From an uncultured Thermoplasmata archaeon (GTDB taxonomy: Archaea; Thermoplasmatota; Thermoplasmata; Lutacidiplasmatales; UBA184), in contig OY970259.1 of NCBI GenBank assembly GCA_963715645.1, positions 815,889-879,888 on the forward strand: a stretch of 64,000 nt of DNA. Direction: 5' to 3'. Below are positions 514 through 59,558 of the stretch, piece by piece. The stretch's first letter is position 1; each line of letters starts with the position of its first letter. The notes below the pieces were generated by a model. It was not told the DNA's origin, searched no databases, and worked only from the letters and a program-made list of their open reading frames with translations. The position numbers were made by a program, and so were the translations under genes.

Positions 514-999
514 CTGGGCCGCCGGGGAGACCGCCCCAGCTCGTGGAAGGGGGCGGAAAGGGTTGCCGGTCGAAGACGGGGAACGACGCCACGGGTAACT
601 TCCCACGACTGCCACTTCCGGCGGATCGCGACCACGAGGTTGCGCAGCATCGTGCCTCCCGAGGGCGCCCGAGGCCGGGGGCTCCTCGAAGGCGATTGCC
701 GAGGCGGGCGCGGTTCCTCGGGTCTCCGCAACGACGGTGACCGCCATGATCGACCGGGGCTGGGGGTCGCGGGCACCGGGTGGAATCGGAGCCCGCGCAC
801 AGGGTTCGCGCCGCGGCCCCGGATCAGCCGCCGGCGGCTGGTCGCCCTTCCGGGGGGGTCCTCCGCCCCGGGGGGAACGCGAGTCCGCAGGTTGAAGTCC
901 TCCGGCGGGGATGCTGCGCACATCGTGGTGGCCTCCGGCGAGCCTCCAATCCCGGGACCCGCCGCCTCCCCCCCTGGGGCCCGGACGACCGGTGTTGTC

Positions 1000-2118
1000 G
1001 CGGGCTTTCTCGGGTTTCTGCGGCGTCATCCGATTGTTTGCCTCGCCCTCCTGACCCCTGGGATCGTCGAGTATCTTTCCACCTCTAGCTCGATTCTGCT
1101 CCTCGTGGAATCCCCTCCGTTCTTCCTCCTCTTCCTCGCGGTGAACGTGGGCCAGTACACTGGGGGGGCGCTGCTCATTCGGGAGGCGATGATCCGATGG
1201 GGCAAGGGGTGGGCGAGCGTGGGCCTGCTCGGGCTCGCCTACGGGATCACCGAGGAAGGTTTGGGGGACAACACGTTGTTCCGCAACACCCAGCATGCCG
1301 ACGGCGTGCTCGGCTGGTACGGTCACTTCGTGGGGGTGAACTGGGTCTGGTCGGTCGGTGTTCTCTCCCTCCACGTGATCGTCTCCATCGCCCTGCCCAT
1401 CCTCCTCCTCGCTCTCGCCCTGCCCAAGACCCGCGGCCGCTCGTTGCTCGGGCCCCGGGGGGTCGTCCTCGCGTTCCTTTCGCTGGCCGGGGCGACCGTG
1501 TTCGAGACGTTCGTAGTGTTCCGACTCTATCACTTCTGGATGGGGTCAGCGCTGCTCGTCGGAAGCCTGGTGGCGATCGCTGCGCTCGTGGTCGCCGCGT
1601 ACCGTCTCCCATCCGATCTGGGGGCTCCGGACCGTCCCGCCCCCGCCGCAGGAGCCTCCGAGATGTTTGCCGTCGGATTCGTGTTCTTCGGGATCGCCCT
1701 CGTCCTCGAGTACGGCTCCGCCGCCTACGGGGTCCCGCCCGCCCTCGCGATCGCGGTCGAACTCGTCCTGCTCGCCAGCCTGGCCGCGTGGACGCGCCGG
1801 CGGATTGGGCGCACACGCAACGAGTACCTGCTCGTGAACCTCGCCTTCGGGTTCGTGATGTGGGAGGGTGCCTTCGGCGTACTGATCACGCTTGGGCTCC
1901 CGGTACACCCTCCCCTTGGTTGCGCTCGCGATCGTCTTCTTCTTGCGACTCCGACGCCAGTATCTTCCCTCTCCCGCAGAGGTCGCACCGCCTCCCCCCG
2001 GCGCGAGGGGCGAGCGAGGCTCGGTCGGCCAACCAGGGTGGGCGTCGAACCCACCGGTGTGAGACGCGAGCAGCCGAGCGAGCCGATTCGGCCGTCGGCA
2101 CCTTGGCCGGGCTTCTAG
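1000..2118 (+). CDS. polytopic integral membrane protein, function unknown
   Basis: Long ORF. From about nt 1000 the translation shows repeated hydrophobic helices (LLFLAVNVGQY..., VLSLHVIVSIALPILLLALAL, FAVGFVFFGIALVLEY). No ATG; start uncertain, probably GTG/TTG. The upstream 640-1000 part of the ORF looks like a spurious GC-rich extension. Confidence 0.4.
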   Translation, partial: AGFLGFLRRHPIVCLALLTPGIVEYLSTSSSILLLVESPPFFLLFLAVNVGQYTGGALLIREAMIRWGKGWASVGLLGLAYGITEEGLGDNTLFRNTQHADGVLGWYGHFVGVNWVWSVGVLSLHVIVSIALPILLLALALPKTRGRSLLGPRGVVLAFLSLAGATVFETFVVFRLYHFWMGSALLVGSLVAIAALVVAAYRLPSDLGAPDRPAPAAGASEMFAVGFVFFGIALVLEYGSAAYGVPPALAIAVELVLLASLAAWTRRRIGRTRNEYLLVNLAFGFVMWEGAFGVLITLGLPVHPPLGCARDRLLLATPTPVSSLSRRGRTASPRREGRARLGRPTRVGVEPTGVRREQPSEPIRPSAPWPGF

Positions 2119-2229
2119 GATGGCCTGCGTGCCGGGACTCCGGTACGAGCCTGCTTCCGGCCCAGGGTGAGGGAAGCCGGGCGCAGCAGCCCTCGCTCAT
2201 CGGCCGAATGCGGGGACTTCTCAGCGAGC

Positions 2230-4342
2230 TCAGGGCACGATTGGTTCGGGCACTCGCCCGTCCGGAAGGAGGGGAAGCGACCGCAGGCGACAGCCGGTGG
2301 CATCGAAGATCGCATTGGCCACCGCCGGCGCCACGGCGATGACTGGTGTCTCTCCCGCCCCGGCCGGGGGCAGGTCATTCCGGTCGACCAGCTCCACCTC
2401 CAAGGTCGGCAGATCGGAGAATCGCGGTACGCGGTACTCCGACAGCCGTGGGTTTTGGACGACCCCCGCGTCGAACCGGACCGCTTCGAAGAGCGCTCCC
2501 CCGAGCGCCATCATCGCGGCGCCCTCCACCTGGCTGCGGAGGTTGTCGGGGTTTACCACGGCCCCCGCCTCGAACGCCGTCACCAGGCGGTCGACGTGCA
2601 GCCGACGATCGTCCTCGACGCTGACCTCGGCGATGGTGGCGACGCGGCTCCCCTTCTCGAAGCCCACGGCGAGGCCGAACCCCGTACCGGGCCGGGGCGT
2701 CCGGGAGGCCCAGCCGGCCCGGAGGGCCGCCCGGCGCAGCACCACCTTGAGACGCTCGTCCTCGAGGTTCAGCTCCCGGAGGGCCAGGGGATCCAGGCCG
2801 ACCCTGTGGGCGAGTTCGTCCATGACAGATTCGCGAGCAAAGTTGTTGGCGGTCGCTGCGAGCGCCCGGTAGGGGCCCTGGGGGAGCGGAGAGCGAGAGA
2901 GCTCGTTGTCGACCCGTTGGTGGGCGACCCGGTACGGTGGCAGCAACGCCGCGGCTCCGCCATTCACGTTGTGGAAGACCCAGGCCTCGAGCTGGCCGTC
3001 CGCCGCAGCGCCCAACCGCACGTCGATGACCGACATGGGCCGGAGATAGGCGTAGCGGAACTCTTCTTCTCGGGTGAACGCGACCCGAACCGGCCGTCCG
3101 GCCGCGCGGGCCAGGCGGGCAGCGGCCGAGGAGATCTCCCCGCCATGTTTTCCCCCGAATCCGGCCCCGGTCGGGGGGACGATCACGCGAATGTCCTCCA
3201 CCGGCACGTGGAGGTCCTCGGCGACTTGGTCGCGGGTCCGAAACGGAGTCTGGGTCCCCACCCACACGGTGAGACGAGAGGCCTCCCATTCGGCGAGCGC
3301 GCAGTGAGGCTCGAGGGGGATGTGGGCGATGTAGGCGGTTCGGAAGGTGGCTTCCAAGGACACGCATGCATGGGAGAGGGCCGCGTCGGCGTCCCCCACG
3401 ATGCTCTCGTCGGTGTCCCACGCGTCTCCCTCGAGCGGGTGGGATTGCAGGTATCCCTCGATCTCCTTCTCGGCCGGCTGGGGAACGGGCATCCACTTCG
3501 CCAGGACCTCTGCGAGGGCCGCCCGTGCCTCGGGCGCGCTGGCGGCGGCGACGCCGACGAAGTCGCCCTCGTGCACGACCGTTACTCCCGGTCGGTCCCG
3601 GGCCGCTTCGAGGTCGACGTCGACGAGGCGGGCCCCGTAGGTCGGCGGCCAGAGGACCACTCCGTGAAGCATGTTCGGGCGGCGGAGGTCCGAAACGTAG
3701 ACCCGCCGACCCGTGACGACATCCGGGGCCCCGAGGTCCCCCGTGGCGCGCCCGGAGCGTTCCCATCGGGATGCCAGCATGGTCGGGGTCTCGGGGTCCA
3801 CCATCTCGAGCCGGTTGCGGTCTCGTACGAGCTCGGAGTAGCTCACTCCCCGGGGAGCGCCGCGCACGCGGACCGTGCCGTCGATCGCTTCCAGCTCGTC
3901 CCGCGGTCGACGGCTCTGCTGGCTGGCGAGAGAGATGAGGCATTCGCGGGCGCCGGCGGCCGCCCGTGCGAGCGCAGGAAAAGCATCGGGCATCGAGCGG
4001 CTGCCGAAGGTCCCCATGTCCCACGGACAAAGGTCGGTGTCGGCCATCACCAGGTCGACCCGCGGGACCGGAAACGCGCAGCTCCTCCGCGACGACCAGG
4101 GTGAGGGCAGTGCGGGTACCTTGGCCGACTTCCGCCTTTCCGGTGAACGCGCGGATCCCCCCGTCCGCCCCGACGTGGACCCAGGCCCCACCGGTCGGAG
4201 GACGCCACTCCGACGCACCAGGAGTTCGGGGGGTTCGAGGGAGGAGCACGGCGACGAGGCCCGGACCAAGGATGTCGAAATACTCGCGGTCCGCGACCGC
4301 CGTCTTGTCCCACGGAAGACGCGGGCGGCGGAGCTCGGTCAT
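2230..4342 (-). CDS. molybdopterin-binding large subunit of a xanthine dehydrogenase/CO dehydrogenase-family enzyme (IorB/CoxL-like); frameshifted
   Basis: N-terminal segment in one frame (MTELRRPRLPWDK...GIRAFTGKAEVGQGTRTALTLVVAEELRV). The rest is in another frame (VMADTDLCPWDMGTFGSRS...GFGGKHGG...ETPVIAVAPAVANAIFDATG). +1 shift at an AAA/TTT run near 4062-4064. ATG at 4342..4340 overlaps the stop of the upstream small subunit (ATGA). Confidence 0.8.
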
Positions 4343-22008: not shown

Positions 22009-22753
22009 GGCCCATCGCTTTCCCCGGCACTTTCCCCCGGTCGACTCCCTGTCCGGTCGGTGCGCCCGTCCCAGGTGTTTGACGAACGGGGGCGGGCATG
22101 TCATCCCACCACCCGTACCCTCCCGGGAGAGACGGGGTCATCACGAGAGAGTGGCTTGGCCCCGCCAAGCGACCCCTCGTCCGCTCAGGACCCAGACTCG
22201 CCCTCAAGGTCCCTGGCTGCCACCTCGTCCTGACCCGGGCCCGGACTCCACTCCGCACGTGGGCCCCCGCAAGTTCGGTATCGACCTCGTAACCCTCGAC
22301 CGCATCGGCGGGGTCGCGACGAACCTCGCGCTCCGTTGGCTCGCGGAGGAGGGAGCCTAGCTCTCCTCGCTTGACTTCAACCTGCGGCCCATCCTGACTA
22401 CGCAGCCTGATGGCCCCGCGCTCTCCTTCGGCGATCGGAGCGGATGCGCGCGTACCTCTACCCCGAACGAAATTTGAACGCGGCGAGGTCCTTCATGCTC
22501 GCAAAGGTTTCCCTGAGCCGAGCTCTAATAGAACGCCTCAACCTTCCAGCGACGGGTGTTTCGCCGGCCCGCGTTGAACGGGTAGCATGTCGTGGCGCCT
22601 TCTAACCGCAGAGGGTCGAGCAGGATACGGGCGAACGAGGCACCCACTCACAGGAGCAAAGGGAAGAAGGGAAACGGTTGGTACGGAGCACTCCACCTCT
22701 CAGGGGTGAGGCGGCCTTCGGGGTCGGTCCGACGGCCGCCCGCGGGGGATGGA

Positions 22754-24019
22754 TTACCAGCCCTGGCTGCCCTTGCTCCCCCAGCCGCCCTCGCTGGACT
22801 TGGCGCCGTTCTTGCCATCGCACCCCTTGCCCCCGTGGTGCCCGTGGTGATGGTGTCCGCCGTTCCCGTGCGAAGAGCCGTGGCCGAAACACTGGACGAA
22901 GGCGATCTGCTCCAAGTGCATCGTGTGCGACGCGAGGGAGGTCGTGGCACCCGCCGATGTGAACGAGCCGATGCCCCCGTTGGTCTCCCCGTCGACGAAG
23001 CCGAGCCCCTTGAGGGTCGTGAAGTAGCTCGCCGGGAACGCCTCGATGGTACCCGCGGTCACGTTCGCAACGAAGAAGATCGCCGGAGTGGTCCCGAACC
23101 CGCAGTCACAGTTCGAGGGGAACGCGACCGACTCGGCGTAGGGCCACGTGACGGCGGGCGTGACCGTGCCAGTCGGGCTAATCGCGTACACGGTGTCCCC
23201 GCCTTGGTGGGGGACGAGGATATCTCCCCCGTACGCGCCAAAGGACCACGGCGCCACCGCAGGGCCCTCGACGAAGAGGTCGAGGTTTGCGATGAGCGTT
23301 ACGACACCGGTCTGGTTGACGGTATAGACGGCGCCGGCCCCGGTCGTCACGATCAGGTCGTGACCGAAGGAGCCCACGGAGTCGTAGGTGAGCCCCAGGT
23401 TGATGGGTGCATAGGGGAAGGAAGCGAACGGCGTTACTGTGCTCCCGCCGTTACTGATCTCGAACAGCTTGCCTTCCTGGGCGTCCCAGAGCGTCTCCGG
23501 TGCGGACTGCTTGCCGTTGCATCCGCACTGCCCCTGCGACTGGTGATTGTCTCCCCAGCTGCCTCCGGACCCCTGGCCGTTCCACGAAACTCCCGACGTG
23601 CTGGTCGCGCTCACATAGCTGCCCCCGCCGGAGGAAGTTGCCGCCCAGCTAGGCGGCGCAAGGGCAACGGAGCCCTCCCCGCAGCCAGCCGGAAGGCTCG
23701 GGAGCACCGCGTAAACGCTTACGACGCCGGAGGGGCTCACGGACAGGACCTGCAGGCAGTCGATCGAATTCGTCGCGAACATCTGTATCGGAGACACGGC
23801 GATCGACTGGATGCCCGGCACGCTCGCGAGGGTGTAATCGCCTCCGGATAAGTCCACCTTGCCGGAGTGCCCGGAGGTCACTGGCGAGGCCGCCGCCCCG
23901 CCCGATACCAGCATACACAAGGCGAACACGAACGCCCCGGTCGCCGTGAGCGTGCGACCCGGCGTCCAGAAGGTGCGTCCCCGGTGGTCCGACGTTCTCT
24001 TGCGCTGCGTGTTCTTCAT
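22754..24019 (-). CDS. secreted hypothetical protein with histidine-rich C-terminus
   Basis: Signal peptide after MKNTQRKRTS... (AFVFALCMLVSGGAAAS). G/S/T-rich body. C-terminus HGSSHGNGGHHHHGHHGGKGCDGKNG. Confidence 0.6.
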   Translation of the reverse strand: MKNTQRKRTSDHRGRTFWTPGRTLTATGAFVFALCMLVSGGAAASPVTSGHSGKVDLSGGDYTLASVPGIQSIAVSPIQMFATNSIDCLQVLSVSPSGVVSVYAVLPSLPAGCGEGSVALAPPSWAATSSGGGSYVSATSTSGVSWNGQGSGGSWGDNHQSQGQCGCNGKQSAPETLWDAQEGKLFEISNGGSTVTPFASFPYAPINLGLTYDSVGSFGHDLIVTTGAGAVYTVNQTGVVTLIANLDLFVEGPAVAPWSFGAYGGDILVPHQGGDTVYAISPTGTVTPAVTWPYAESVAFPSNCDCGFGTTPAIFFVANVTAGTIEAFPASYFTTLKGLGFVDGETNGGIGSFTSAGATTSLASHTMHLEQIAFVQCFGHGSSHGNGGHHHHGHHGGKGCDGKNGAKSSEGGWGSKGSQGW

Positions 24020-24409
24020 CGTTCCGTTCGTTCCTACCCGAACACGCTGTGGCTGTACCCGGGCGTGTTCGGGCGAGGCAGTTGATATCGGGGGAAAAAG
24101 CCTTTCCAAATCTCACACTCCATCGCGCTTTGCGACCCCCTCCGAAGCAGCAGATTTCGACGCCCGGTCTGCCGTCCCACGGAGGCGGCTTCTCACGGTA
24201 CCGCCCTGCCGACCCGTCATCACCGGTGCAGGGCTCGCCCATCCAATCTTCCCCGTCGACCGATTCGGCCGGGCGGTTTGGAACTGGGCGGGACGTCACG
24301 GCGGATCCGTCGGTCGGTGTGAGGGAGGCACTGGCGCAGGAGCCCCATCGGCGGGGCGTTGACCCGCTGGGACGGTCGAGGGATCGGTGGTTGCCGACTG
24401 CCCGCATGT

Positions 24410-24458
24410 GTTTAACAGAAAGTACAAAAGTTTAAGTGTAGGTTAACTTCTGTTAAAC
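24410..24458. promoter_or_regulatory. perfect 11-bp inverted repeat (GTTTAACAGAA ... TTCTGTTAAAC, 27-nt spacer) plus TATA-like TTTAAG; putative operator/promoter of the RHH gene
   Basis: AT-rich island in a 68% GC genome. Arms at 24410-24420 and 24448-24458. The spacer contains a GTTAAC palindrome and AAGTTTAAG about 25 nt upstream of the GTG at 24461 (leaderless-type arrangement). Confidence 0.6.
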
Positions 24459-24460
24459 GC

Positions 24461-24856
24461 GTGCGGAACGCTCGAGCAGCTCCCGCGACGTACTTCCTCG
24501 GGGTGCGCCTCACCACCGAAGAAGCGTCGTCCCTCGAACAGTTCCGAGTAGCGAACGACCTGCCGAATCGCTCCGAAGCGGTTCGTGCGCTCGTCCGCGG
24601 CGCGGGCGGTGCACCCGTGTCCGAGGTCGAGCTCCCGGTGACGCTGAGGGCGGCGCTGGAAGAGATCGTCGAGGAGGGCTACGCCCGAGACCTGGACGGT
24701 GCGATCGCCACCGTCCTCACCCTCGGGTTGGGGGAGTTAGCACGGACCCACACCGAACGGTTGCCGGCGCTGCGCGAACGCGCGCGCTCTGCCTCCGAAC
24801 GGCGCCGGGACCGGAAGCGGGCGGACCGCGAGGGTCGGGGACTCCTCGGGCGCTAG
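24461..24856 (+). CDS. ribbon-helix-helix (CopG/Arc/MetJ-like) DNA-binding protein
   Basis: YFLGVRLTTEEASSLEQFRVANDLPNRSEAVRALVR is a typical RHH N-terminus. GTG start immediately after the palindrome. Confidence 0.6.
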   Translation: MRNARAAPATYFLGVRLTTEEASSLEQFRVANDLPNRSEAVRALVRGAGGAPVSEVELPVTLRAALEEIVEEGYARDLDGAIATVLTLGLGELARTHTERLPALRERARSASERRRDRKRADREGRGLLGR

Positions 24857-24881
24857 TTCCTCGGAAAAGGTTGGTTGCAAC

Positions 24882-25020
24882 ATGGAATCGATCGCCATTG
24901 CGTGGAGCGAGCGGAGCGGGTTCATCTGCCGACTGTGCCGTCAGGACGCCAAGCATAATGAGGTGCTACACATCTCGTATTGCCCCGTCCACGGTCTGAG
25001 TTCCCCACTGGACCAGCTAC
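24882..25020 (+). CDS. possible small zinc-ribbon protein
   Basis: MESIAIAWSERSGFICRLCRQDAKHNEVLHISYCPVHG (CxxC...CPxH). End unclear; the ORF runs into the next gene in another frame. Confidence 0.25.
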
Positions 25021-25021
25021 C

Positions 25022-25597
25022 GTGGCGTCCGGAGGCGAGATCATCCCGCGTCTCTATACCCGTACCGGTGACGACGGCACGACCGGTCTCGCACATGGTG
25101 CGCGCGTAGCCAAGGAATCGCTGCGGATCAACACTTACGGTACCGTCGACGAGCTGGGCGCTCACCTCGGCCGTCTCGAGGCCGGGCTCCCTCCGCCGCT
25201 CGACGAGTTCCGCCAGGTGGTGCGTCGCCTCCAGCATCAGCTGTTCGTCGCCCAGTCCGAGCTGGCGGTTGCGCATGGCGCGAAGCTCCCCGCCCACGTG
25301 ATCCAGGCCCGGCACGTCACTGAGCTCGAGCGGGAGATCGACCGGTTCGACGCCCGACACCCCGAGCTCCGCGCCTTCGTTCTGCCTGGTGGGTCGCCCG
25401 TAGCCGCCGAGTTCCATGTCGCAAGGACCGTGGCGCGACGGGCCGAGCGACAGCTCTGGAGACTGCACCGCGCCGAGCCGGTCCGTCCTGAGCTCCTGCA
25501 ATGGGCCAACCGCCTGAGCGACCTTCTCTTTGCGATGGCGCTCGCGGCGAACGCGGCTCTCGGCGTGCCCGAGACCGCCCCGGACTATTCGATCTGA
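25022..25597 (+). CDS. ATP:cob(I)alamin adenosyltransferase, PduO type
   Basis: IIPRLYTRTGDDGTTGLAHGARVAKESLRINTYGTVDELGAHLG matches the PduO-type N-terminus. GTG start at 25022 inferred. Confidence 0.75.
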   Translation: MASGGEIIPRLYTRTGDDGTTGLAHGARVAKESLRINTYGTVDELGAHLGRLEAGLPPPLDEFRQVVRRLQHQLFVAQSELAVAHGAKLPAHVIQARHVTELEREIDRFDARHPELRAFVLPGGSPVAAEFHVARTVARRAERQLWRLHRAEPVRPELLQWANRLSDLLFAMALAANAALGVPETAPDYSI

Positions 25598-25609: not shown

Positions 25610-26807
25610 ATCGAAGTCGGGCTCGTCGGCAAACCGAACGTCGGGAAGTCGACCCTCTTCAACGCGCTGACGCTGCTCGACGTGCCGATGGCACCCTACC
25701 CGTTCACGACGATCGAACCGAACCGAGGTGTGGCCGCCGTCCGGGCCCCGTGCCCGCACGTGGAGCGCGGGAGCCCGTGCACCCCGGGGAACGCCAAGTG
25801 CGTCGACGGCACGCGGTGGGTGCCGGTCAAGCTGGTCGACGTCCCCGGCCTCGTTCCCGGAGCCCACGAGGGAAAGGGCCTGGGTCACAAGTTCCTGGAC
25901 GACCTCCGCGCAGCGGATGGGTTCATCCAGGTCGTCGACCTCTCCGGCGGGACGGACCCCGAGGGCCGCCTGGCCCCTCCGGGCAGCCAGGACCCCTCCG
26001 AGGAGGTCCGTTGGCTCGAGGAGGAGCTCGTCGATTGGGTCACCGATATCCTCGGACGAGATTTCGAACGGCAGGCACGCAGCGTGGAACTCGAGGGAAA
26101 GAAAGTCGAGGAGTTCCTCAACCACCGGCTCACGGGCCTGTCGGTTGGCCCCGCCGCGCTCGCCACCGCCCTCCGGGCGTCCCCCGTCGACCGGGCGCAT
26201 CCCAGCCACTGGACCGAGGCGGAGCGGCGAGCGCTCGCGCGAGCCCTGCTTCGGGCTTCGAAGCCCCGCCTGATCGCCGCGAACAAGTGCGACCGTGCGG
26301 ACTCGGCCCGCCTCGAGGCGCTCGCGGGCGCGCTCGAGGAACTGCCAGTCGTACCCTACCGCCGCGGACGCCGAGCTGACCTTGCGGCGGGCCGCTCGAG
26401 CCGGGCTCGTCGACTACCGGCCGGGGGACCCGAACTTTTCGATCCGCGACCCGGCGAGGCTCTCCCCCCCTCAGTCGAAGGCCCTCGAAGCCCTGCGCAC
26501 CGTGATGTCGACCTGGCAAGGGACCGGGGTCCAGGCTTCCCTCGAGCGACTCGTGTTCGACCGACTCCACCAGATCGTGATCTACCCGGTCGAGGACGAG
26601 ACGCATTGGACCGACAGCCGGGGCCGGGTGCTCCCAGATGCCTTGCTGGTGCCGGCCGAGACCCCCGCACGTGCCGTCGCCTATCGCGTGCATACCGACC
26701 TGGGAGAGCACTTCATCCGGGCCATCGACGGGCGAACCCACCGTGCCATCGGAGCCGAGCAGCCGTTGGCACCGAATTCGGTGGTACGGATCGTCTCGCG
26801 CAAGTAA
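25610..26807 (+). CDS. Obg/YchF-like GTPase with C-terminal TGS domain; frameshifted
   Basis: G1 [12 protein letters not shown]; PFTTIEPN; [12 protein letters not shown]. After a 1-nt indel near 26350 it continues IVIYPVEDE...VLPDALLVP...[16 protein letters not shown] (TGS). No canonical start codon after the stop at 25595-25597; a six-G run sits there. Confidence 0.7.
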
Positions 26808-59299: not shown

Positions 59300-59558
59300 T
59301 CCCGCTTGGACGGTGACCATCTCCGTCCGCACACCCACTGCGGAACTCGCGGGCTGGCTCGAACAGGCGCTCCTCCCTGAGGCGTCGCGCGAGGTGCCTA
59401 GGGCCCATGCCGAGGTCCATCGCCCGGCTCCGACCCGGGTCGAGATCAGGATCCGCGCGCGGGACACCGGCTCTGTCCGGGCGGCCCTGAACACCTATCT
59501 AGGCTGGGTCCACCTCGCCCTGGCCGCCGTACCTCGCGCCCGGCCAGGGTCGACGTAG
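59300..59558 (+). CDS. pcc1: KEOPS complex subunit Pcc1-like segment (in-frame with purB as assembled)
   Basis: WTVTISVRTPTAELAGWLEQALLPEASREVPRAHAEVHRPAPTRVEIRIRARDTGSVRAALNTYLGWVHLALAAV matches the Pcc1 beta-alpha pattern (ALxPE...LRAxLNsYLrW). Confidence 0.45.

Follow-up and report, generated by a model that had tools for sequence, protein, structure and literature searches.

Ribbon-helix-helix (RHH) proteins such as Arc, CopG and MetJ are known to regulate their own genes through short repeats that overlap the promoter. In the Sulfolobales, the RHH factor aCcr1 binds 9-bp palindromic boxes that lie between TATA box and start and represses by blocking the formation of the pre-initiation complex (PMC9976878). 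For casposons, target-site duplications (TSDs) of 14-15 bp, dependence on a leader motif and tandem arrays have been documented (PMC6614799, PMC9939771, PMC6563490), and their casposase requires an anchor in the target and, 9-15 bp away from where it inserts, a leader motif (PMC6614799). Both subjects come together in a 64-kb stretch of DNA from an uncultured Thermoplasmata archaeon (contig OY970259.1; the whole stretch is called the window here, and positions are counted from its first letter), in an AT-rich island directly upstream of the gene for a RHH-type regulator. The island serves as core promoter for an operon of housekeeping type that is conserved in a soil and peat clade of Thermoplasmata, and one of its boxes is the integration target of a family of casposons. 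With moderate confidence, we read the whole as a conserved operon promoter that the RHH protein would itself repress through three boxes, of which the most distal, box 1, is exploited by casposons.

The genes for aTrm56 and mevalonate kinase and the taxonomy of the database matches assign the window to a Thermoplasmata archaeon. A scan of GTDB species representatives provided 62 related loci, and promoters were compared over 57 Thermoplasmata loci. In the window, which has 69% GC, the island (24395-24468) is the most AT-rich stretch. The same layout precedes the orthologous gene in about 50 of the 57 species-level genomes, and the RHH proteins of these species are only 52-86% identical. The 80 nt before the start are strongly conserved, and the DNA further upstream is unrelated or unalignable between species. 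The conserved order is GTWWWAC at -52 (box 1), an A-rich ACACAAT, ATAAATAT at -30 to -23, GTTAAAT at -20 (box 2) and GTTAAAC at -9 to -3 (box 3). Box 1 was found as GTWWWAC at -52/-53 in 51 of the 57 loci; of 51 loci scored for box 2 (GTTAAAT or GTTAACT), 48 have it at 10 or 11 nt from box 3; box 3 is GTTAAAC in 39 loci and another GTWWWAC variant in 14, always 9-10 nt before the start. Each box is a small dyad-symmetric palindrome of 7-9 bp, YGTWWWACR. Boxes 1 and 3 are 43 nt apart in 40 loci, 42 nt apart in eight and 33 nt apart in two, so that, with the 10 or 11 nt between boxes 2 and 3, the variants differ by whole helical turns and all spacings correspond to integral turns (10-11 bp and 42-43 bp; 33 bp in the two species). 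As in autoregulated modules, short dyad-symmetric sites overlap the regulator's own core promoter and are conserved together with the gene. GTWWWAC is no general promoter feature, since it occurs only five times in the 64-kb window, twice within the island.

The promoter itself is of the archaeal type. Leaderless transcripts are recognised by a box some 26 nt before the start codon, found in Thermoplasmata in 11 of 11 cases (PMC6028130). The TATA box of the island has its centre 26-27 nt or so before the start codon, holds this position in 50 or more species and is accompanied by no Shine-Dalgarno sequence; its geometry places the predicted transcription start at or next to the GTG, and the mRNA of the operon is predicted to be leaderless. 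The GTG is the true start because the N-terminus MRNARA..ATxFLGVRLT is conserved among more than 300 homologues of 131-132 aa, an in-frame stop lies at 24413 and a Shine-Dalgarno sequence is lacking. A first reading of the stretch, made from the letters alone (the sequence-only reading), had proposed a TATA-like element, a leaderless GTG start and the architecture of an autoregulated RHH repressor. The first two agree with the comparison across species, and the short dyad-symmetric boxes between TATA box and start do have the geometry of known archaeal RHH repressors. A scan for sigma-70 promoters and terminators was disregarded as irrelevant to an archaeal host.

The sequence-only reading had been built on a perfect 11-nt inverted repeat. 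Its arms, GTTTAACAGAA (24410-24420) and the exact complement TTCTGTTAAAC (24448-24458), the 27-nt spacer with TTTAAG (24431-24436) and GTTAAC (24442-24447), and the 2 nt between the right arm and the GTG at 24461 were all verified, and the repeat can be extended to arms of 19 nt with 17 of the 19 positions matching. Perfect 11-nt inverted repeats are not rare in the window as a whole (11 observed versus about 4.7 expected); given the composition of the island, such a repeat is rare (3 of 5000 shuffles). Stronger evidence than these statistics comes from the conservation across species. Beyond the two arms, the 64-kb window has no further copy at one mismatch or less. The relation between the arms is not a general property of the locus: boxes 1 and 3 are inverted to each other in 13 of 50 loci, direct in 18 and neither in 19. 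The regions of the two boxes are complementary at 17 of 21 positions in the window, which is the maximum among the 50 loci (mean 11.5), and complementarity within loci (11.46/21) shows no excess over that between loci (11.90/21; permutation p = 0.99). Because neither the inverted relation nor the complementarity is conserved, the perfect palindrome of the window is a lucky instance of a symmetry that exists at the level of the consensus. The 11-nt palindrome as a unit has thus to be given up in favour of the three GTWWWAC boxes, which are what is conserved.

The second function of box 1 was seen in contigs that encode an identical RHH protein. Compared with L114 and five other such contigs, contig L113 carries a 4.7-kb insertion exactly at box 1 (L113:1251-5944; also present in L121); the contigs with the empty site and an identical RHH gene include L114 and L116-L119. 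The empty site of L114 reads ...CCCCGAAGTTTTACAAACttacaaaat..., and the occupied site of L113 reads ...GTTTTACAAAC / GGGGGCACCCCCGCCACACCACCTTTCAAGT... at the left junction and ...ACTTGAAAGGTGGTGTGGCGGGGGTGCCCC / CCGAAGTTTTACAAAC / ttac... at the right junction. The insert is bounded by perfect terminal inverted repeats (TIRs) of 31 nt, with the tip GGGGGCA...CACCACC, and by a TSD of 15-16 bp, (C)CGAAGTTTTACAAAC. It encodes Cas1 (PF01867, E 1.2e-33), a PolB of the protein-primed type (DNA_pol_B_2, 29.1 bits versus a cutoff of 25.8) and three small open reading frames (ORFs). The best sequence match of its Cas1 in the PDB is 6opm (E 5.6e-28), the casposase of Methanosarcina mazei. A second intact Cas1/PolB copy sits in the same place in L043 (about 900-3950). 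The elements of L113, L121 and L043 thus have the characters by which casposons are recognised, i.e., a solo Cas1 integrase and a family B polymerase inside the element, TIRs flanked by a TSD, and an empty site in a related genome. Box 1 with 4 nt on each side is hereby shown to be a specific 15-bp integration target of casposons that is duplicated on insertion. The RHH and Zn-ribbon proteins of the operon have no similarity to the casposon ORFs, and no integrase or transposase was present among 26 upstream ORFs scanned.

Traces of the same elements are widespread. A GC-rich arm of 25-30 nt (GGGTYGGWG...TGCCCCC) ends 3-4 nt before box 1 in 31 of the 57 loci, and about a dozen loci have, at 1-4 kb upstream of the RHH gene, a GTWWWAC heptad enclosed by this arm and an inverted copy of it. 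In 11 of the 57 loci, the species-specific 15-mer composed of box 1 and 4 nt on each side is repeated 0.08-3.7 kb upstream (as a direct repeat in 10 of the 11), with a rough estimate of about 1e-3 per locus for its recurrence by chance, and the DNA between the copies begins with GGGGGCA... and ends with ...TGCCCCC. In L113 and L043 the arm is the TIR of an intact Cas1/PolB element, Cas1 fragments adjoin arms in L002, L003 and L052, and the arm/heptad elements coincide with synteny and inversion breakpoints between species. Since the L113 element has the same ends, the palindromic arm/heptad/arm elements are the places where tandem or decayed insertions meet, and the arm that borders box 1 on its left is a casposon TIR, the end of the nearest insertion. 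Interpretations of these palindromic elements as integron attC sites, dif/Xer sites or IS200/REP-like sequences were dropped, the Cas1/PolB element having the same ends. Among side observations, the breakpoint of an inversion between L052 and L058 coincides with a GTWWWAC heptad, and at L042:3918-3963 two copies of the 15-mer are separated by nothing except GGGGGCACCCCCC; the latter appear to be abutting TIR tips, the minimal footprint of a deleted casposon. A metagenome scan with the pattern GCCCCC-N3-4-GTTWAAC-N3-4-GGGGGC gave 50 matches, of which 47 were unrelated bacterial terminator hairpins; the remaining three, of Thermoplasmata type, all lie 1.1-2.9 kb from a RHH gene, which suggests site specificity.

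The window itself probably holds a decayed casposon of about 2.3 kb (22088-24405), recognised from degenerate TIRs, a TSD with 10 of 15 positions identical and a 51-aa fragment of Cas1 (features in Table 1). Each of these traces is weak alone, and they agree in position and order. The left TIR remnant can be aligned both to 24366-24405 in reverse complement and to the tip of the L113 TIR. About 180 nt to the right of the left TSD copy, the Cas1 fragment shows 45% identity to residues 35-85 of the L113 Cas1 (tblastn, E 1e-7 versus the window). A PolB was not found in the remnant, and a nhmmer model of the arm detected no copy in the window at E <= 1; the left junction was located later, guided by the Cas1 fragment. 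Because a decayed copy would lie there, the GC-rich stretch to the left of box 1 can be read as a transposon end. The left arm of the inverted repeat had been taken for an operator, and, containing box 1, it may be part of one; it is at the same time the candidate TSD of a casposon, which was invisible from the single stretch. The distal heptad has decayed to GTTTGAC and the promoter-proximal copy retains the consensus, which argues that box 1 serves, and is maintained by, the host promoter and is merely used as a target by the transposon. As a side observation, 22050-22119 forms a degenerate palindromic junction of arm-like CCGGTCGGTGCGCCCGTCCC (22050-22072), aggtGTTTGACgaac and GGGGGCGGGCA...; an arm outside the left TSD points to a still older insertion farther upstream, possibly covering the genes for an APS kinase and a PBP-like protein.

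Table 1. Features of the island, of the putative casposon remnant and of the operon in the window (positions relative to the GTG start are given with a minus sign)
Feature	Position	Strand	Remarks
Candidate left TSD copy, degenerate, AGGTGTTTGACGAAC	22073-22087		10/15 identical to 24406-24420
Candidate left TIR remnant, GGGGGCGGGCATGTCATCCCACCACCCGTACC (GGGGGCGGGCATGTCATCCCACCACC...)	22088-22119		Begins 4 nt after the degenerate heptad, as at other junctions
Putative Cas1 (casposase) pseudogene fragment	22265-22417	+	In-frame stop
His-rich secreted-protein gene	22754-24109	-	Between Cas1 fragment and right TIR remnant
Candidate right TIR remnant, TCGAGGGATCGGTGGTTGCCGACTGCCCGC	24376-24405		Matches the GC-rich arm of relatives; aligns with the left TIR
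Casposon target and candidate right-hand TSD, ATGTGTTTAACAGAA	24406-24420		4 nt + box 1 + 4 nt
9-bp palindrome around box 1, TGTTTAACA	24409-24417		
Box 1, GTTTAAC	24410-24416	none	-51 from start; left arm of the repeat
A-rich stretch resembling a TFB recognition element (BRE)	24425-24430		Directly before the TATA box
TATA box, TTTAAGTG	24431-24438	+	-30 to -23; aligns with ATAAATAT, which relatives conserve equally far from the start
Box 2, GTTAACT	24442-24448		10 nt upstream of box 3
Box 3, GTTAAAC	24452-24458		-9 to -3; core of the right arm of the repeat (24448-24458)
RHH-type regulator gene	24461-24856	+	131 aa; GTG start; predicted leaderless
Zn-ribbon protein gene (CxxC...CxxH)	24882-25109	+	75 codons; tail overlaps PduO
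PduO-type ATP:cob(I)alamin adenosyltransferase gene	24980-25597	+	Pfam PF01923, E 1e-53
YchF/YGR210-like GTPase gene, last of the operon	25610-26807	+	ATC at the aligned start (GTG in relatives)

By its gene content (Cas1, protein-primed PolB and three small genes upstream of polB), the L113 element resembles the family 1 casposons of Nitrosopumilus and Nitrososphaera, such as NitAR1-C1, and in both kinds TIRs are present, insertion is site-specific with a TSD of about 15 bp, and tandem copies or remnants form arrays (PMC9939771, PMC6563490, PMC6614799). It differs from them in its host, a member of the Thermoplasmata, in its length of only 4.7 kb and in its target, which is a palindromic box in the promoter and putative operator of the RHH operon instead of the 3' end of ef-2 or a tRNA gene. 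A likeness to the CRISPR leader-repeat junction also exists, in that an AT-rich, promoter-containing "leader" stands beside a short, partly palindromic unit that is duplicated with each Cas1-mediated insertion, and successive insertions form an array with the unit at every junction. However, the duplicated unit measures 15 bp instead of 25-40 bp, whole transposons are inserted, the "leader" is an ordinary operon promoter, and neither Cas2 nor other cas genes are present.

The assignment of the regulator to the RHH superfamily, which had been called a CopG-type RHH protein in the sequence-only reading, can be accepted on the strength of a predicted structure as far as the N-terminal fold is concerned; membership in the CopG family proper (PF01402) cannot. 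In the AlphaFold2 monomer model, a beta strand (10-17) is followed by two helices (19-31 and 37-48), which is the arrangement that defines the superfamily, and then by a further helix (60-71) and a long one (78-130); confidence (predicted local distance difference test, pLDDT) is 71.5 overall and 74-88 across the N-terminal beta-alpha-alpha part. The N-terminus carries the motif NRSEAVRALV. The top of the Foldseek list consists of RHH domains (NikR, the N-terminal domain of MazE9, PutA, AtaR, TCP), all with E > 1 and none significant, and the family profile matches NikR weakly (E 0.18) over the NRSEA(I/V)R helix. Weak matches to RHH_1 were obtained for two of 34 homologues (E 0.007) and to DUF6290 for five of 34 (E about 0.007), and many family members are annotated by JGI as "Arc/MetJ-type RHH". 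The family is small and clade-specific, with 36 clusters at 50% identity among 1.84 billion proteins, a set in which no sequence bridge to CopG was found. With NikR, Arc, CopG and MetJ the protein would share the beta-alpha-alpha DNA-binding module and operators composed of short, helically phased repeats that overlap its own promoter. NikR is the best, though weak, match in sequence and structure, and like the window protein it possesses a C-terminal domain, which separates two RHH dimers. The differences are that the window protein remains below the Pfam threshold for RHH_1, that its C-terminal part is unrelated to the ACT-like domain of NikR, and that here the promoter is of the archaeal TBP/TFB type and the mRNA is predicted to be leaderless. 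Three long proteins of 932-1305 aa (P0151, P0152 and P0154) each contain four to five matches to positions 17-65 of the RHH profile and may be arrays of RHH-like repeats.

Autorepression by the RHH protein is the best-supported reading of the island, and we infer that the protein binds the boxes. RHH dimers would bind boxes 2 and 3 between TATA box and start, two sites which, being one helical turn apart, would fit two dimers on one face of the DNA, and would block the recruitment of RNA polymerase or TFB, as described for aCcr1. From four turns upstream, box 1 on the same face could contribute cooperative or bridging contacts, perhaps via the long C-terminal helix. The outcome would be negative autoregulation of the operon of RHH, Zn-ribbon, PduO and GTPase genes. 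With aCcr1 the protein has in common that it is a small archaeal RHH factor with short palindromic boxes between TATA box and start. There is, however, no detectable sequence relationship; aCcr1 has 58 aa, whereas the protein studied here, of 131 aa, continues into a long helical extension at its C-terminus; the box is here GTWWWAC, with a third one upstream of BRE and TATA box; and the target of aCcr1 is cdvA, whereas here it would be the regulator's own operon.

Several points weigh against this reading. The window protein matches no Pfam family at E <= 0.01 and no PDB sequence, and its assignment to the RHH superfamily draws on a model of medium confidence (pLDDT 71.5) and on weak matches. 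The beta strand RFLGVRLT is almost invariant among the homologues, so that no test for covariation of protein and DNA is possible. Neither in the window nor across 440 kb of related loci was a further promoter with the boxes found, and the specificity of the boxes for the RHH protein consequently rests on linkage. Moreover, box 1 could owe part of its conservation to repeated targeting by casposons.

It is unlikely, though worth serious consideration, that the boxes are a real operator bound by another host factor, either the Zn-ribbon protein or a nearby ArsR-like protein (PF09824), and that the RHH protein acts elsewhere. The RHH protein is linked to the boxes by position alone, the Zn-ribbon protein is more conserved than the RHH protein (85-93% identity), and the PF09824 regulator is syntenic a few genes downstream. 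Nevertheless, RHH proteins as a rule autoregulate via short repeats overlapping their own promoter (PMC9976878), and both the size of the boxes (7-9 bp, dyad-symmetric) and their spacing of 10-11 bp fit RHH dimers on adjacent sites. Distinctly improbable is the explanation that the heptads have no regulatory role and are recognition or anchor motifs of the casposase, with box 1 as the target and boxes 2 and 3 as a "leader", kept by recurrent casposon activity. Box 1 is indeed at the centre of the 15-bp TSD, arms are found in 31 of the 57 loci, and the need of the casposase for a leader motif and an anchor (PMC6614799) would be matched. But a transposon is unable to maintain its own target in the host, and the boxes are intact at arm-less loci and in a species with a stable, casposon-free upstream region; boxes 2 and 3 lie in the interval between TATA box and start at fixed phase, and the decay of the window's distal TSD copy to GTTTGAC, with the consensus kept in the promoter-proximal copy, speaks for the host promoter.

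Three further explanations are all very improbable. The first, a RNA hairpin in a 5' untranslated region that sequesters the GTG, would consist of 19 bp including two G-U pairs; both mismatches of the 19-nt arms are G-U on the plus strand, and the predicted fold has -29 kcal/mol (z = -5.2). It was rejected for the absence of covariation (the p = 0.99 given above); the inverted relation is confined to 13 loci, the TATA box would come to lie inside the hairpin loop, and no Rfam match was found in the window at the gathering threshold or in 24000-25200 at E <= 1. In the second, the palindrome acts symmetrically as a promoter in both directions, with a divergent transcript that belongs either to the minus-strand ATG at 24407 or to the His-rich gene. 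The TATA box at the exact centre of the palindrome and an ATG 2 nt beyond its left arm fit this idea; the upstream neighbour, however, is different in every species and often co-directional, the minus-strand ORF has no homologues and no Pfam match and overlaps the His-rich gene, and the DNA left of box 1 reads as a transposon end. In the third, the RHH protein is an antitoxin, the Zn-ribbon protein its toxin and the palindrome the operator of a toxin-antitoxin module, as might be indicated by the weak DUF6290 matches and by Foldseek neighbours that include the antitoxin RHH domains MazE9, AtaR and TacA. In about 60 species the two genes, inherited vertically, keep a fixed synteny with PduO, the GTPase and a block of ribosomal/translation genes, unlike mobile toxin-antitoxin modules, and the toxin that a type II module would contain was not recognised, the Zn-ribbon protein matching no toxin family. 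Finally, a replication-origin unwinding element flanked by GC-rich repeats, for which the most AT-rich spot of the window and the superficial resemblance of the G-string arms to archaeal origin recognition boxes could be adduced, is effectively refuted by the comparison of occupied and empty sites, since the arms are casposon TIRs, and retains next to no probability, the island being only about 60 bp long with no skew inflection and no orc1/cdc6 gene nearby.

Under the preferred reading, autorepression by the RHH protein, the genes concerned can be named. The sequence-only reading had called the regulon unclear; the operon, in the order RHH, Zn-ribbon protein, PduO and YchF-like GTPase, is conserved, with the Zn-ribbon ORF syntenic in 61 of the 62 loci and PduO in 58, and it adjoins a conserved block of translation-related genes. 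No AT-rich, promoter-like stretch was found within it. The Zn-ribbon protein belongs to no Pfam family, and its 85-93% amino acid identity in the 61 loci exceeds that of any neighbour, RHH included. Variability per codon position is 0.03/0.03/0.18 in the first 99 nt of its ORF, and in the last 78 nt this pattern moves to another frame. Selection acts on the protein in roughly the first 50 codons; in the last 26 or so, which overlap the start of PduO, it follows the PduO frame. The codon positions thus show the Zn-ribbon protein to be genuine and under strong constraint along those first 50 or so codons. The true start of PduO is probably near 25020. In the window, the reading frame of the GTPase gene is shifted by +1 between 26355 and 26407, the tblastn alignment of the intact L114 orthologue being divided between frames 2 and 3; this is either an assembly error or the mark of a pseudogene.

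Upstream of the island, no gene is conserved. The divergent His-rich gene, which had been drawn into the regulatory picture, has no homologue at any of the 62 related loci and lies inside the putative decayed casposon, and it is thus no part of the system. Its 5' region contains another perfect 11-nt inverted repeat, which is GC-rich (CCCGAACACGC, a 15-nt spacer and GCGTGTTCGGG; 24037-24073). Two ORFs reaching into the intergenic region, 24049-24435 (+) and 23649-24407 (-), were rejected as coding, with no Pfam match and no homologues. In about 10 species, a gene for a M29-like aminopeptidase (about 370 aa) recurs close to the RHH operon, where its distance varies and it may point either way; it was seen in the upstream flanks of L003, L014, L016, L018, L024, L026, L032, L047, L052 and L058. 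Elsewhere in the window, ARAGORN called a 92-nt tRNA-Arg(CCG) at 59399-59490 with the anticodon at position 32. This call is doubtful; the region is GC-rich and coding-looking, has no promoter-like element and received no confirmation from Rfam.

The putative RHH operator belongs to a known kind, and its interest lies in being a clean, deeply conserved example of archaeal repression geometry, with boxes between the TATA box and a leaderless start and a phased box upstream, under a regulator from an uncharacterised, clade-specific RHH family of abundant soil and peat Thermoplasmata. The apparently new twist, and the more interesting result with the larger value, is the overlap of a promoter box with a mobile-DNA target, i.e., that such a box beside an AT-rich promoter is a dedicated target of casposons. 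The casposon targets known so far are for the most part 3' ends of tRNA or ef-2 genes, and a palindrome beside an AT-rich promoter resembles the CRISPR leader-repeat junction more closely. As the region upstream of the operon is a recurrent casposon target, it is a hypervariable island of transporters and secreted proteins. The occupied and empty alleles, the perfect TIRs and the decayed tandem copies provide a natural system for target choice by a Cas1-family integrase. It is improbable, and put forward as a speculation, that the RHH-operator complex itself guides the casposase, as a free-living analogue of the CRISPR leader-repeat junction with an IHF-like host factor. If this were true, the three heptads would serve regulator and transposase alike, the AT-rich promoter would be a "leader" bound by a DNA-bending factor of the host beside a palindromic unit that is duplicated with each Cas1 insertion, and the tandem casposon remnants upstream of the RHH gene would be a proto-CRISPR-like array.

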